Notes: a model not told the origin generated them from the sequence alone. Positions 1 through 8,018 are shown, counted from the first letter of the stretch. The stretch is DNA of 8,018 nt from a virus (IMGVR_UViG_2663763286_000023), one strand, 5' to 3'. Made by a program: numbers and translations.

Positions 1-211
1 CGTAATTCAGATGACCCTGTTCGAGCAGGTATTCGCGGATATCAGACAACAGGATACGGTGAACCGCGTTCTTGTCCTTTCTCCGGTAAAGTTGTTTGGT
101 GATCATGAAGTAGTTGGCAATAACGCCTGGTATATCCCTGGTGCTGATACAGGCAGTGTGCTGTTCAATTGCCTCGATCATCTCTTCACGGGTGACTAAT
201 GACGTTCTCAT
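1..211 (-). CDS. 5' part of the antirepressor-like ORF (first 70 codons), running off the window edge; the same gene as 6778-7890 if the unit is circular or tandem, otherwise a paralogous copy
   Basis: ATG at 211-209 on the minus strand, preceded by AGGAGG (complement of 215-220). The open frame continues to position 1 and is identical to 7680-7890. Confidence 0.55.
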   Translation of the reverse strand, partial: MRTSLVTREEMIEAIEQHTACISTRDIPGVIANYFMITKQLYRRKDKNAVHRILLSDIREYLLEQGHLNY

Positions 212-339
212 AGCCCCTCCTGAGCAGAAGCGTTAACAGGGAGGCACCAGTAACTGAGAGAATTGCGCAAATCGGTAGAAAAGCGGGCAGAGAAAATACA
301 GGGAGCATCCGGAAGCTGAGAACGTGCCTCATCTTCTGT
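1..339. repeat. Direct repeat, copy 1 (identical to 7680-8018); both copies are cut by the window edges, giving a period of 7,679 bp
   Basis: Base-by-base reading: 1-339 matches 7680-8018 with no mismatch. Copy 1 starts at the window start and copy 2 ends at the window end, so the true repeat may be longer. Confidence 0.95.
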
Positions 340-862
340 TGGTGCGATAACGAAGTGATAGTGACGTTTCTGGCAGGAGTAAAAGCGCCAGATAAATTCA
401 GGGCGTGCGCAAGGATTGGCATTAACCATAGTTACGGCCTCATGTACAGGTTTAACAACCTGCTACCCGCTGCTAAACGGGTGGCAGGACGTGACGGGGT
501 TAGCAGACTGGCGTACATGAAACCAGCAGGCCGAAGCCTCCCCATCACGCCCCACCATAATTCGGGCGTAATGCGGTTTTACGGACATAAAAATACCGCA
601 ATATCGGAAATCTGCGGTTGTCCGCATGTACATTCAGGCTGCTAAACCCGGTCGCAGAATTTGCTACGACGTAGGAACTATAAGCCTGAACAACAGGAAG
701 ATCAATAGTCTGGCGTCCAATAGTAGTTTATTTGTTCCAATAAATCAAATTTATTAGAGCAATAACAATCTAGTTGAATGTTTCCTCTCTGAGGTTGCAA
801 TGTGCACACTTAGTGTCTTATTTGTATGCACTAATAAATATATTATTTTTAATAATAAATAA

Positions 863-890
863 TTGACAACTGACAAGTGACTTCAGTCAG
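863..890 (+). promoter_or_regulatory. TTGACA hexamer followed by a cluster of TGAC repeats (TGACAAC, TGACAAG, GTGACTTC, then inverted GTCAG); candidate promoter, operator or iteron-like site
   Basis: Read directly from the sequence at the 3' edge of a very AT-rich stretch (about 700-860). No convincing -10 hexamer at canonical spacing. Confidence 0.25.
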
Positions 891-900
891 AATCATCACA

Positions 901-963
901 CGCCCGGTACGGATGGATCCCTTTTCAAATATTCCATGGACGGCACAGTCTGAGTACCGGGCG
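901..963 (+). other. Perfect 10-bp inverted repeat (CGCCCGGTAC at 901-910, GTACCGGGCG at 954-963) with a 43-bp spacer
   Basis: Seen directly. Lies in the presumed 5' leader or upstream region of the 1024-1668 gene. Confidence 0.4.
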
Positions 964-984
964 CTACCTTCAGTTGTATTGCTA

Positions 985-1012
985 AGCCGCCGCTGGTGGC
1001 TTTTCTTTTTTG
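985..1012 (+). terminator. Terminator-like hairpin and U-tract (stem AGCCGCC / GGTGGCT with one G-U pair, then TTTTCTTTTTT) just upstream of the ribosome-binding site of the 1024 gene; possible attenuator
   Basis: Stem 985-991 pairs with 995-1001, followed by a T-rich run 1002-1012, then GGGGGAG and ATG at 1024. Confidence 0.3.
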
Positions 1013-1023
1013 TAGGGGGAGCT

Positions 1024-1668
1024 ATGGATAAGAAAATATGCGTTGTTTCGATGAGCGTCGGCAAACCGGCGTCAATGACTGCTGCATGGATCAATAACGA
1101 GCTGATAATGGCTGAGCGGACCAGCTACCCTGAACGCCGCCGCGATATGGAACTCCAGCTGCTGCGCGAATTGCGAGAAAAAGAGGAGAAGGGTTTTATC
1201 GTGCTGGTGGAAGAGGAAAACAGCTTTATTACTGGTCGAGTTGGCCAGCGTGTAAGGTTGCGCGATCCCTTCATGAACGGCAGGCCGGTACTAATTGAGG
1301 CAATGCAGATTTATAAGGAGCTGGAACGCCAGAAAGCAATCAAGTTACCGCGCAAGGAATCCGGCAAATACATCCTCCACCAAAGCATCTTCGATTCCGA
1401 ACACGATAAAAAAGGCGATGAGTTTTTCAACATCAACTGGAGCGAAATAACGACAGAGCATGTTCTGACGTTGTTATGCTGCTTCGCAACAGAATACAAC
1501 AACGTGGTAAGCGCAGACTACATCAGGACAATGACAGACACCATTACTAAACAAGACAACGAATATTCACCATATGAGCCATTTGTAAATATGATAAAAG
1601 CATTTTATCGGATGGAGCTCGCTAAAGTTCCTCAAGGTAAATTAACAGGTAAGGATAACATCTTTTAA
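1024..1668 (+). CDS. Hypothetical protein, 214 aa, no family recognised
   Basis: ATG at 1024 preceded by a GGGGGAG Shine-Dalgarno-like run (1014-1020); stop TAA at 1666-1668. The six-frame ORF extends upstream to a GTG at 877, but that stretch overlaps the inverted repeat and terminator-like hairpin, so the 1024 start is preferred. Confidence 0.55.
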   Translation: MDKKICVVSMSVGKPASMTAAWINNELIMAERTSYPERRRDMELQLLRELREKEEKGFIVLVEEENSFITGRVGQRVRLRDPFMNGRPVLIEAMQIYKELERQKAIKLPRKESGKYILHQSIFDSEHDKKGDEFFNINWSEITTEHVLTLLCCFATEYNNVVSADYIRTMTDTITKQDNEYSPYEPFVNMIKAFYRMELAKVPQGKLTGKDNIF

Positions 1669-1721
1669 GCACAGTAATGAGGTGCTTAGACGTTCATATC
1701 AATATCCTAACTCTCTGCATC

Positions 1722-2411
1722 TCATAAATCTGATAGCCACTTACTATCTATGGACTCAATCTCCGTCAACGGAATTGATGGGAAAAAATATCCTTGAGCG
1801 CCCCATAGCCCTATCCCTTTTAATAACCTATAACAATCAATGTTTTCGACGCCTTCAGCGATGATATTCGGACATAACTTTTTTAAATTGCTAATAATGA
1901 CATCAAAATGAGGCTTAATCATATGCTCTTGCAAAAATGACTTATCAAGTTTTATTGCATGGTATTTATTTTTAATTAATGCTTTCATGGTGGCGTTACC
2001 ACTTCCAAAATCATCAAGCCAAACATTATCTGTCAAAGTCAGTAGAAAGGATATGACGTAATCCTCATCGCTTAAATCAGGATAGTTTTCTGATATCTCA
2101 ATCGCTATAAATTTATTGTTTATTAGTAGCTCTTGAATTTGTTTATTACCATATATATATAAACAGGTCTCATAATCTACATTGATAGAGCATAATATAT
2201 TATGGCATTCAAAAAAACACTTATATTTGATTATTGTGTTAAGTTGAGATGTTAGCAAGTTAATCTTCATCTTGCTTGTAAACATACCTAATACTCTCTG
2301 AGTAGGAAGAATAGCCCCCTCGTTGGAATAAAATCTGCTTAACACTTCCACTGCTATCAACTTGTTAGTGCTTGTGGAAATGATTGGTTCTACTATGTAG
2401 ATAACTTCCAT
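1722..2411 (-). CDS. Standalone EAL-domain protein (c-di-GMP phosphodiesterase family, YdiV/PdeH-like), 229 aa, with catalytic motifs apparently intact
   Basis: Translation contains EVLSR (EAL motif), NVD, IEISENYP, DDFGSG (DDFGTG motif), KLDKSF, AEGVEN (EGVE motif) and QGYFF. ATG at 2411-2409 with GAGGG upstream. Gene is about 30 percent G+C by eye. Confidence 0.85.
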   Translation of the reverse strand: MEVIYIVEPIISTSTNKLIAVEVLSRFYSNEGAILPTQRVLGMFTSKMKINLLTSQLNTIIKYKCFFECHNILCSINVDYETCLYIYGNKQIQELLINNKFIAIEISENYPDLSDEDYVISFLLTLTDNVWLDDFGSGNATMKALIKNKYHAIKLDKSFLQEHMIKPHFDVIISNLKKLCPNIIAEGVENIDCYRLLKGIGLWGAQGYFFPSIPLTEIESIDSKWLSDL

Positions 2412-2647
2412 GCTCCCACCCTCTATTTTTAAATTGCTTGATTTTGCTCAGATAACGAGCCCCCTATATTCACAAGAGTTACACTCTACTTTTGTAGATT
2501 AAATGTCAATTTATTTGTTTGCGATAATATTGAAAAATATCAATTAAAATAATCAACAAATGTGACATAAATCAATAATTTTATTTTTACACAACTTCTT
2601 GATTTCTGAGCCTGGTTATCTCTATTCTTATTCAAAGCCTCTTTAGA
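2412..2647. promoter_or_regulatory. AT-rich divergent intergenic region between the EAL gene and the AraC-family gene; presumed divergent promoters. A weak CRP-like half-site pair sits at 2561-2576 (TGTGA-N6-TCAAT)
   Basis: 236 bp of non-coding, very AT-rich sequence between two divergently oriented starts. Individual promoter hexamers cannot be assigned reliably in such AT-rich DNA. Confidence 0.4.
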
Positions 2648-3382
2648 ATGGTGGTGGCCATGTCAGCAGTTTGTTACTTCATACTCATAAAGAAACCTAT
2701 AAGCTTTCAATTTCTTAAGGATTTCTTGATATTAAATTATGGTGATGTGCTGTTGCTTAAGCATTCTGAGCATGAATGCTTAAAAATGTATTCAGACAAA
2801 TATATAGAATTCGAACTCAATGATAATACCGTAAGAAACTATTTATTATGTAACAACAACCATGGAAACCAATCGCTGGATAAGTGTCCACATTTGCTAA
2901 AAAAGTCTTTTGCCTATCCTGATTTATTAATCAGGATGATCGATAATATAAGCGACCAAAATCATATCCATTCTGATTTTAGGGAGGCAGTAACTTTTTC
3001 ATTACTCTCAATTTTTAATGATGTTGATAACTTTAGAGCATTTCTTACGTCTGGTATGCCCACTTTCTCAGGGAAAGTGCGCAGCATATTTCTTTCAGAT
3101 GTATCTAAACACTGGAAACTAAGAGACCTAACCGATTATCTCTACATGAGTGAAAGTTTAATAAAGAAAAAACTATTACTAGAAAACACCTCCTTCAGTA
3201 AGTTATTACTTGATACACGGATGGCTTTTGCTATTAAATTACTAAAGCAAAATCATCCAGTCAAACAAGTATCAGAAAGCTGTGGCTTTAGTAGTACATC
3301 GTACTTTGTGTGCCTGTTCAGGCAATATTATAATTGCACGCCACGTGAATATGCAAAACATCAGTTATTATCTGGAAAATAA
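2648..3382 (+). CDS. AraC/XylS-family transcriptional regulator, AppY-like (N-terminal sensing or dimerisation domain plus C-terminal double helix-turn-helix), 244 aa
   Basis: C-terminal region SESLIKKKL...TSFSKLLLDTRMAFAIKLL...SESCGFSSTSYFVCLFRQYYNCTPREY matches the AraC-family HTH signature and resembles AppY as recalled. Very AT-rich. An alternative start is the ATG at 2660, which has GGTGG just upstream. Confidence 0.85.
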   Translation: MVVAMSAVCYFILIKKPISFQFLKDFLILNYGDVLLLKHSEHECLKMYSDKYIEFELNDNTVRNYLLCNNNHGNQSLDKCPHLLKKSFAYPDLLIRMIDNISDQNHIHSDFREAVTFSLLSIFNDVDNFRAFLTSGMPTFSGKVRSIFLSDVSKHWKLRDLTDYLYMSESLIKKKLLLENTSFSKLLLDTRMAFAIKLLKQNHPVKQVSESCGFSSTSYFVCLFRQYYNCTPREYAKHQLLSGK

Positions 3383-3420
3383 GATGCATTTATCTCCCAG
3401 ATAATATTGTAATATTAAAC

Positions 3421-3669
3421 TCAGTCAGCATTTAGTAGCAGAGCATTATCTATGATGATCTGCTCCCATTCTTCGAATGCCCGATCGCGGACCCCCTGGG
3501 GAACACTGTTAGTTTTGAAATCGACGACCGTACGCCATTTCCCGTCCGGACGGTACATGCGCAGAGCTTTACTTCCCCCTTCCCTGCGCACCTCAACGTT
3601 ATGCTTGTCAGCAAACTCTTGTAATGCTCGTAGCGTCCCATGCTTTACTGTGTAGTATCGCTTTTTCAA
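3421..3669 (-). CDS. Small basic protein, 82 aa, TTG start; possible HicA/YcfA-like fold (speculative)
   Basis: TTG at 3669-3667 preceded by GGAGAG (complement of 3675-3680) with a 5-nt spacer. No in-frame ATG before residue 38. The segment GGSKALRMYRPDGKWRTVVDFKTNSVPQGVRDRAFEEW resembles the HicA pattern GSH..hPdG..tvP.H...l..Gtl as recalled, but the His positions are replaced. Confidence 0.55.
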   Translation of the reverse strand: MKKRYYTVKHGTLRALQEFADKHNVEVRREGGSKALRMYRPDGKWRTVVDFKTNSVPQGVRDRAFEEWEQIIIDNALLLNAD

Positions 3670-6777: not shown

Positions 6778-7890
6778 TCACTCAGCCGCTACAGGCTTTA
6801 ATAAACCTGCATCGAGCAGTTTACGCGTCAACCACTGCTGGCCTTTACCCGTTAATTGGGGCGTCAGCCGTATCTGGTAACCATCTTCATCATCCAGCAC
6901 CACTTCTTTCACCGTGAAATACCCGGCGTTGATGTATTGCTGGAACGGCACATTTTTACGTCCACCGGACGCTATCAGGATGCCGTTCCCCCGTAACCAG
7001 GCAAACAACGCGTTTTGCTTAAGCCCAACAACCTTTGCAAAATTTCCAATCAGGATCCCCTTGGCCCCTGATACCCGGTCGGCAAAATCGACTTTAGGGG
7101 CGGCGGCCACCAGCTGCTGATTTAGCTGGTGGGCTTTCTGTTCCAGAAGTTGCTTTTGTTCAGCCAACTCGGCAGCCAGGCGCAAAGCTTCGGGAAGCGT
7201 CTGAGGGATTGCGACCGGTTGCTGTTCTTTTTGCCGGAAGTAGCTGTCTTCCAGTTTTTCAAAGAATGCCCATGCTTCATTTGTGTCCACGATCTTAGAC
7301 ATGCGTGCAGCGCCGCGCTCTGTCCAGAGTGTAAGGCTTCTGGCGTTCTTACCAACAGAGTAACTTCCGGTTACTCTGTTCTTAAATTCTCTTAATTTTA
7401 AACCAGTTAGAAGAAAGTAATGCTTACCTTCTTCAAAGCGGTCAAGGTTGCGAGACAAATTGTTGCGAATATTGGCTTCATCGACCCCATACCCTCTAGC
7501 AAGAGTTTCGGTTGTTACGACACGTACTCCCTGCCATTCCAGAACGGGAATTTCATCCGGCTGATTCTGAACAACCACCAGTTCCGATTCCTGAACTGAA
7601 GGTGCATGAATTTTTTCTGATTTAACGTTAGTTGCTTTCATTCTGTGTGCCTCCTTGCGTGCTTCGGCTGCGACGGTTGCGTAATTCAGATGACCCTGTT
7701 CGAGCAGGTATTCGCGGATATCAGACAACAGGATACGGTGAACCGCGTTCTTGTCCTTTCTCCGGTAAAGTTGTTTGGTGATCATGAAGTAGTTGGCAAT
7801 AACGCCTGGTATATCCCTGGTGCTGATACAGGCAGTGTGCTGTTCAATTGCCTCGATCATCTCTTCACGGGTGACTAATGACGTTCTCAT
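6778..7890 (-). CDS. Phage antirepressor (ORF6N/Bro-N-like N-domain plus KilAC/Ant C-terminal domain) with an 83-aa N-terminal extension; 370 aa from the upstream start, 287 aa from the internal start at 7641
   Basis: ORF6N-like segment VVTTETLARGYGVDEANIRNNLSRNLDRFEEGKHYFLL...LTLWTERGAARMSKIVDTNEAWAFF. KilAC-like segment ILIGNFAKVVGLKQNALFAWLRGNGILIASGGRKNVPFQQYINAGYFTVKEV...GYQIRLTPQLTGKGQQWL. Both in-frame ATGs have strong Shine-Dalgarno sequences: AGGAGG 5 nt before 7890, AAGGAGG 8 nt before 7641. Stop TGA at 6780-6778. Confidence 0.85.
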   Translation of the reverse strand: MRTSLVTREEMIEAIEQHTACISTRDIPGVIANYFMITKQLYRRKDKNAVHRILLSDIREYLLEQGHLNYATVAAEARKEAHRMKATNVKSEKIHAPSVQESELVVVQNQPDEIPVLEWQGVRVVTTETLARGYGVDEANIRNNLSRNLDRFEEGKHYFLLTGLKLREFKNRVTGSYSVGKNARSLTLWTERGAARMSKIVDTNEAWAFFEKLEDSYFRQKEQQPVAIPQTLPEALRLAAELAEQKQLLEQKAHQLNQQLVAAAPKVDFADRVSGAKGILIGNFAKVVGLKQNALFAWLRGNGILIASGGRKNVPFQQYINAGYFTVKEVVLDDEDGYQIRLTPQLTGKGQQWLTRKLLDAGLLKPVAAE

Positions 7891-8018
7891 AGCCCCTCCT
7901 GAGCAGAAGCGTTAACAGGGAGGCACCAGTAACTGAGAGAATTGCGCAAATCGGTAGAAAAGCGGGCAGAGAAAATACAGGGAGCATCCGGAAGCTGAGA
8001 ACGTGCCTCATCTTCTGT
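7680..8018. repeat. Direct repeat, copy 2 (identical to 1-339)
   Basis: Same comparison as copy 1. Contains the first 70 codons, ribosome-binding site and upstream region of the minus-strand antirepressor ORF. Confidence 0.95.

Follow-up and report, generated by a model that had tools for sequence, protein, structure and literature searches.

The window, an 8,018-nucleotide stretch of viral DNA (IMGVR_UViG_2663763286_000023), carries on its minus strand an open reading frame of 370 codons (6778-7890; first residues MRTSLVTREEMIEAIEQ in the ORF listing of the window) with two in-frame start codons, here named ant1 and ant2 as in P1 (Table 1). An in-frame TAA lies eight codons 5' of the ATG at 7890 with no intervening start codon, so that this ATG is the first possible start, and the second ATG, at 7641, follows in frame 249 nt (83 codons) further on. 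The initial annotation had described both starts as having strong ribosome-binding sites, and this description was borne out: the minus strand reads AGGAGG-GGCT-ATG at 7900..7888, with the Shine-Dalgarno (SD) sequence 4 nt before the ATG, and AAGGAGG-CACACAGA-ATG at 7656..7639, with a spacing of 8 nt. With both strands counted, the 8 kb contains the pattern AGGAGG-N3-9-ATG three times (expected, 0.37; three reached in 1 of 200 shuffles), and all three sites are ant1/ant2 starts, one being the repeat copy at 209-221. Both Pfam domains of the protein lie downstream of Met84, in agreement with the earlier statement that an ORF6N/KilAC core begins at the second ATG.

The gene immediately upstream is icd, whose TGA overlaps the ant1 ATG as ATGA at 7890-7887 (4 nt). 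A promoter region had been proposed directly 5' of 7890, but a promoter within 7891-8018 is excluded, as these 128 nt are the coding 3' part of icd, with the ant1 SD inside it, and the promoter and operator lie ~470-550 nt further upstream. The control region (440-763), comprising operator, promoter, C4 and a/b targets, is readable in the left copy of the operon only; c4 of the right-hand operon lies beyond the window end and is present in L014, a 25-kb contig from another assembly. In the left copy, the promoter TTGATC-17-TATAGT at 677-705 (-), with its -10 at 677-682 and its -35 at 700-705, matches the P1 promoter P1c4, and a C1 operator homologue at 747-763 (-) agrees with P1 Oc4 at 16 of 17 positions. 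Both b2 and a2 are complementary to the C4 loops of the left operon, and the sequence elements follow the same order and spacing as in P1.

Table 1. Features of the 8,018-nucleotide window, ordered by position.
Feature	Position	Strand	Basis or remark
Left copy of the 339-bp exact repeat	1..339		Identical to 7680-8018
Site-A ant1 5' fragment, codons 1-70, cut by the contig end	1..211	-	L015 gene 7808-8017
icd of the site-A operon, complete, 73 aa	208..429	-	NCBIfam NF033153 phage_ICD_like, 49.8 bits (cut-off 25); phrog_1426, E 4.8e-46
C4 targets b2 (440-447, adjoins icd RBS) and a2 (470-476)	440..476	-	Alignment to annotated P1 sites
C4 antisense RNA gene; mature 77-nt form 480-556	477..562	-	Rfam RF01695, 71.7 bits (gathering score 45); P1 c4 alignment
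a1/b1 element upstream of c4; b1 624-631, a1 639-645	624..683	-	Rfam RF03163, 53.2 bits (46.7), at 631-683
Operon control region: P1c4-like promoter and C1 operator Oc4 homologue	677..763	-	Promoter scan; P1 alignment
263-aa ORF, annotated as 251-aa hypothetical protein	877-1668
EAL-domain protein	1722-2411	-
AraC-type HTH regulator	2648-3382
82-aa ORF	3421-3669	-
ant1 CDS, long antirepressor form	6778..7890	-	370 aa and stop; P1 Ant1 and phrog_63 matches
ant2 CDS, short form from Met84	6778..7641	-	287 aa and stop; aligns with P1 and P7 Ant2 start
KilAC/ANT domain, aa 258-359	6814..7119	-	Pfam PF03374, 107.9 bits (25.3)
ORF6N domain, aa 116-200	7291..7545	-	Pfam PF10543, 66.5 bits (gathering score 27.8)
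Ant1-specific extension, aa 1-83, predicted small helical domain	7642..7890	-	dN/dS, tblastn, AlphaFold2
ant2 Shine-Dalgarno AAGGAGG	7650..7656	-	Encoded by Ant1 Lys-Glu-Ala
Right copy of the 339-bp exact repeat	7680..8018		Part of the 436-bp perfect repeat between operons in L014
icd 3' part, last 43 codons and stop (right operon)	7887..8018	-	Identical to 208-339 of left icd
ant1 Shine-Dalgarno AGGAGG	7895..7900	-	Inside icd coding sequence

This arrangement is that of the P1 immI operon (NC_005856), in which icd (48470-48691), ant1 (48688-49731) and ant2 (48937-49731) show the same ATGA overlap and the same 249-nt offset between starts. The P1 gene shares with the window gene the homologous extension, the internal start context AAGGAGGC-N7-ATG and the KilAC C-terminus, and the P1 operon likewise has icd upstream, a C4 RNA with a1/b1 and a2/b2 sites, and a C1 operator. 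The dual-start antirepressor is thus already known, P1 having been on record since 1989 (X15639), where both proteins are listed, also under the names RebA and RebB, and where X15639.1 annotates a ribosome-binding site at the same place as the ant2 SD of the window. P7 (AF503408; ant1 51402-52448, ant2 from 51651) has the same architecture with a 4-nt icd overlap, and its record describes ant2 as "contained within ant1 and translated in the same frame". The locus also differs from that of P1: a second paralogous operon is present here, unlike in the P1 ant1/ant2 locus, and the gene neighbours are a lysozyme gene upstream and convergent pro/portal genes, whereas P1 has sim upstream and kilA-repL downstream. 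The best DNA matches, at up to 99% identity, were P1-like plasmids of Shiga-toxin-producing and other E. coli, in whose annotation the gene of a "host cell division inhibitor Icd-like protein" overlaps by 4 nt the start of a 1113-nt CDS for a "phage antirepressor KilAC domain-containing protein". For P1, Ant1-Ant2 has been described as a heterodimeric antirepressor, and C4 control has been described as well (PMC8546580; PMC8198154). Extra icd-ant1/2 homologues have been reported in this plasmid region (PMC6906374); we found no discussion of C4 specificity in that paper and no mention of operon duplication in a preprint on an O111:H8 P1-like plasmid.

At the protein level, the window product matched P1 Ant1 over its full length (BLASTP; 57% identity, E 7e-130), the first 83 residues and Met84 aligning without gaps and the KilAC C-terminus being almost identical to that of P1 Ant. 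The family phrog_63 ("anti-repressor Ant") matched aa 1-370 (E 2.9e-136) and covers aa 1-82 of the extension. Stand-alone antirepressor PHROG families begin at ~aa 100-119 of the window protein; the short form is therefore the counterpart of ordinary ORF6N-KilAC antirepressors, with the extension as a feature peculiar to the P1 group. Those stand-alone proteins (phrog_4792, phrog_1760, phrog_9438) share the ORF6N-then-KilAC core of the short form but have neither the 83-aa extension nor the dual start, and they lack both icd coupling and C4 control. What distinguishes the present allele is its middle third, in which Pfam found ORF6N, whereas in P1 Ant1 (347 aa) Pfam found no ORF6N and assigned nothing to the middle region; the partner or target of the window protein could therefore differ from that of P1. 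The middle domain of P7 Ant differs from that of the window in the same way. A further Ant1 variant recovered as a HMMER match (P0048, 467 aa) has both a P1-type middle region and ORF6N between the extension and the KilAC domain, which shows that the middle of Ant1 is shuffled in a modular way while the extension and the C-terminus stay fixed.

Comparison with homologous antirepressors bears on whether the 83-residue extension belongs to the gene. It is 64% identical to P1 Ant1 (E 2e-31), with dN/dS of ~0.07 against P1 and 0.07-0.13 against four P1-type genes (pS 0.71-0.75 and pN 0.21-0.24; P1, 0.75 and 0.22). Differences fall at the three codon positions as 23/16/46, and stop codons abound in both other frames; these patterns indicate that the extension is under strong purifying selection as protein in the ant1 frame. 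A tblastn search located it at 920 places in 577 plasmids and also in 21 phage records; among the matches listed, all extension loci stood under antirepressor and/or Icd annotation, and in every inspected context the extension lay within an antirepressor ORF directly downstream of icd with an ATGA overlap. Searches with aa 1-83 gave no match in Pfam, NCBIfam or PDB sequences, and an exhaustive HMMER search of 1.84 billion representatives gave 17 matches, essentially all of them P1-type Ant1 N-termini or fragments and one a spurious repeat protein. The AlphaFold2 model of the extension (pLDDT 76) places helices at residues 8-21, 24-38, 47-65 and 70-90. A 77-aa ORF antisense to the extension (7645-7878, +), with a 62-aa version in the left copy (11-199, +), is most likely spurious, given the selection signature of the sense frame.

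Two other occurrences of extension-related sequence were observed. On an E. coli chromosome (GCA_054461465.1; L018, 4001-4417), residues 2-69 of Ant1 recur at 72-74% identity in a 138-aa ORF that has no antirepressor body and adjoins SSB, ProQ-like and DUF927 genes of another mobile element. On NZ_CP135674.1 (L006, 2435-3580), an antirepressor gene at a third site, adjoining c1 and without icd upstream, begins with the first 60 residues of the late-promoter activator Lpa (PF25716), joined in frame to ant at DIREYLLEQG, so that the Lpa N-terminus stands in for approximately the first 56 residues of the extension. This gene seems to be a fusion created by a deletion in which the pac genes were lost.

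The initial annotation had considered that the upstream segment might have come from a different gene and survive as a remnant joined in frame, in which case the short ORF6N-KilAC protein alone would be functional. The beginning of typical stand-alone antirepressor families near aa 100-119, the lack of a Pfam family or solved-structure match for the extension, its copy in an unrelated chromosomal ORF and its partial replacement by Lpa would all fit such an origin. However, we consider it highly improbable, because the extension shows strong purifying selection in frame against P1, and also in view of its distribution over plasmids, where each inspected copy was fused to Ant downstream of icd, and of the standing of ant1 as a recognised P1 gene. 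The converse possibility, that only the long protein is made and the internal ATG is an ordinary methionine codon, with AAGGAGG a by-product of the conserved Lys-Glu-Ala, is also very unlikely, if somewhat less so. In its favour, the SD is encoded by conserved amino acids, so that protein-level selection could explain most of its conservation, and PGAP annotates the 1113-nt CDS in closed plasmids in its long form only. Ahead of Met84, the window, P1, P7 and two further plasmids (L007 and L008) all carry the sequence AAGGAGGC despite saturated synonymous sites, but such conservation alone is weak evidence, as it concerns two to three synonymous sites in essentially two clades. Against production of the long protein only, AAG and GAG have kept their synonymous third positions at a pS of 0.75, the 8-nt spacing of the SD is ideal, both products are annotated precisely here in the records of P1 and P7, and an Ant1-Ant2 heterodimer has been described (PMC8546580). 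The earlier suggestion of long and short isoforms thus holds by homology to the P1 and P7 genes annotated with the same offset, and it is from P1 that production of both from the present gene is deduced.

The 5' region of the gene had also been placed in a terminal repeat. The 339-bp exact repeat is real, with identity between 1-339 and 7680-8018 continuing to the window end, but it does not mark a genome terminus. The window equals, in reverse complement, a complete draft contig (JXWD01000090.1, assembly GCA_000948825.1), and L014 contains all 8,018 nt at 100% identity and continues on both sides into two complete icd-ant operons, the flanks being further, diverged operon sequence. Within L014, a perfect 436-bp stretch occurs at 863-1298 and 8542-8977, 7,679 bp apart in direct orientation; because the contig ends lie inside the patch shared by the two operons, the repeat is not a physical terminus. 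A true terminal repeat was rejected in view of the linear position of the window within L014 and of the two copies in closed plasmids. Nor is the duplicated part exactly the promoter and the extension, as had been stated: it consists of codons 1-70 of the 83-codon extension and, instead of a promoter, the last 132 nt of icd. In L014, L012 and L003, the site-A ant1 fragment runs on into a complete 370-aa gene, and both operon copies are present in a closed 98-kb plasmid. The two-operon layout is the same in the closed plasmid p99_1145-3, with modules 91.9% identical over 1.7 kb and a longest identical run of 200 bp. Other plasmids carry one of the two operon sites only. The simplest reading is that the repeat is a real intra-plasmid duplication with a gene-conversion patch, from which short-read assembly yields repeated ends or false circles. 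The right end of the window coincides with the upstream edge of the 436-bp stretch, but the left end lies 97 nt inside it and not at an edge, so that assembly gives an incomplete explanation of the exact end points. The other explanation of the repeat would be a real element of 7.7 kb, circular or terminally redundant, in the form of either a circle excised through recombination of the two operons or a tandem amplification: in two further draft assemblies, contigs of 7.5-7.6 kb represent the window unit in circularly permuted form (listed with L015, L016 and L017), and direct repeats 7,679 bp apart could recombine. The unit encodes a portal protein, a head-processing protein, an EAL protein, an AraC-type regulator, icd and ant, but no replication gene was recognisable in it, and cyclic contigs are the expected short-read outcome of a collapsed repeat. 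As the full window is also linear within the 25-kb contig, with different sequence past both ends, and as closed plasmids show the two-copy layout, we regard such an element as very unlikely.

We therefore conclude with high confidence that the ORF at 6778-7890 is ant1/ant2 of a P1-like plasmid prophage of E. coli, as an allele with an ORF6N middle, and that the repeat reflects two immI operons inside which the contig ends.

The two operons are of different C4 specificity. Module A, the left copy of the window, has the a sequence TTAGCAG and the b sequence GTACATG, and module B has TTGACAG and ACGAATG, respectively. The a site of module A is that of P7 (TTAGCAG; b, GATTGTG) and the a site of module B is that of P1 (TTGACAG; b, GTTAGTG), while the b sequences of both modules differ from those of P1 and P7; the C4 recognition sequences of the window thus differ from those of P1, and its left operon combines the P7 a site with GTACATG where P7 has GATTGTG. 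In each module, the changes are fully compensated in a1, a2, b1, b2 and both C4 loops. The loci concerned are window positions 440-645 (-), 12060-12320 in L003, and 678-705 and 8357-8384 in L014. In L014, C4-B lies upstream of the 6778-7890 ORF and C4-A upstream of the other copy, whereas L012 has C4-A twice: there the apparent conversion has turned c4, too, to the A type, with b1 still of the B type. A junction resembling an A/B hybrid (window 7575-7635) was matched by one IMG/VR contig, a different 96% variant, which showed that typing modules as A and B from one plasmid was too simple.

Otherwise the two operons are ~92% identical, with a perfect patch over the icd 3' end and the ant1 5' end. 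This patch comprises window positions 1-339 and 7583-8018 and has a length of 436 bp in L014 as against 724 bp in L012 (9585-10308 and 17265-17988), while in L003 the longest identical run is 200 bp. On comparison of the copies, the patch looks like the product of gene conversion between the modules. That two complete c4-icd-ant1/2 operons with mutually orthogonal C4 RNAs, their 436-724-bp patch kept by gene conversion, give the plasmid a dual antisense immunity or a two-key induction switch is a tentative proposal, to which we assign a rather low probability.

Between the site-A operon and the portal gene, the window carries cargo (877-3669; Table 1). In related plasmids, a darB methyltransferase remnant follows this cargo, and others hold SIR2 or RelA/SpoT-domain genes or an intact darB at that place.

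The ant1/2 gene is the last of an immI operon ordered as C1 operator, promoter, a1/b1, c4, a2/b2, icd and ant1/2. Since the ATG at 7890 overlaps the icd stop as ATGA, translation of ant1 would be coupled to that of icd, a coupling itself carried over from P1, and ant2 would start at the ATG at 7641 from its own SD, embedded in the Lys-Glu-Ala codons of Ant1. According to work of Schuster and colleagues, the antisense control reportedly acts via translational repression of icd. For P1, C1 and C4 together are described as holding the operon silent (GenBank notes; PMC8198154; PMC8546580): processed C4 pairs with a2/b2 at the icd ribosome-binding site, blocking icd translation and thereby preventing ant expression, and upon failure of repression the Ant1-Ant2 complex binds and inactivates C1, sending the prophage into lytic growth. 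By analogy with P1, both proteins would be made from the allele in the window and act on C1.

As the dual start and the control by antisense RNA and translational coupling have been on record for P1 since 1989, the discovery value of the gene itself is small. Its annotation nevertheless carries several lessons: in this plasmid family, automated pipelines call the long CDS and omit ant2; the sequence just 5' of ant1 is icd coding sequence and contains no promoter; and where a short draft contig of a P1-like plasmid has repeated ends, it should not be taken for a small circular or terminally redundant element. The occurrence of two orthogonal immI operons with a gene-conversion patch in one plasmid may interest the field of phage-plasmid immunity. 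If our proposal is true, antisense immunity could protect such a prophage simultaneously against superinfecting P1 relatives of two immI types, or its induction could depend on a two-key switch, and the N-terminal domain of Ant1 would be the part held identical between the copies.
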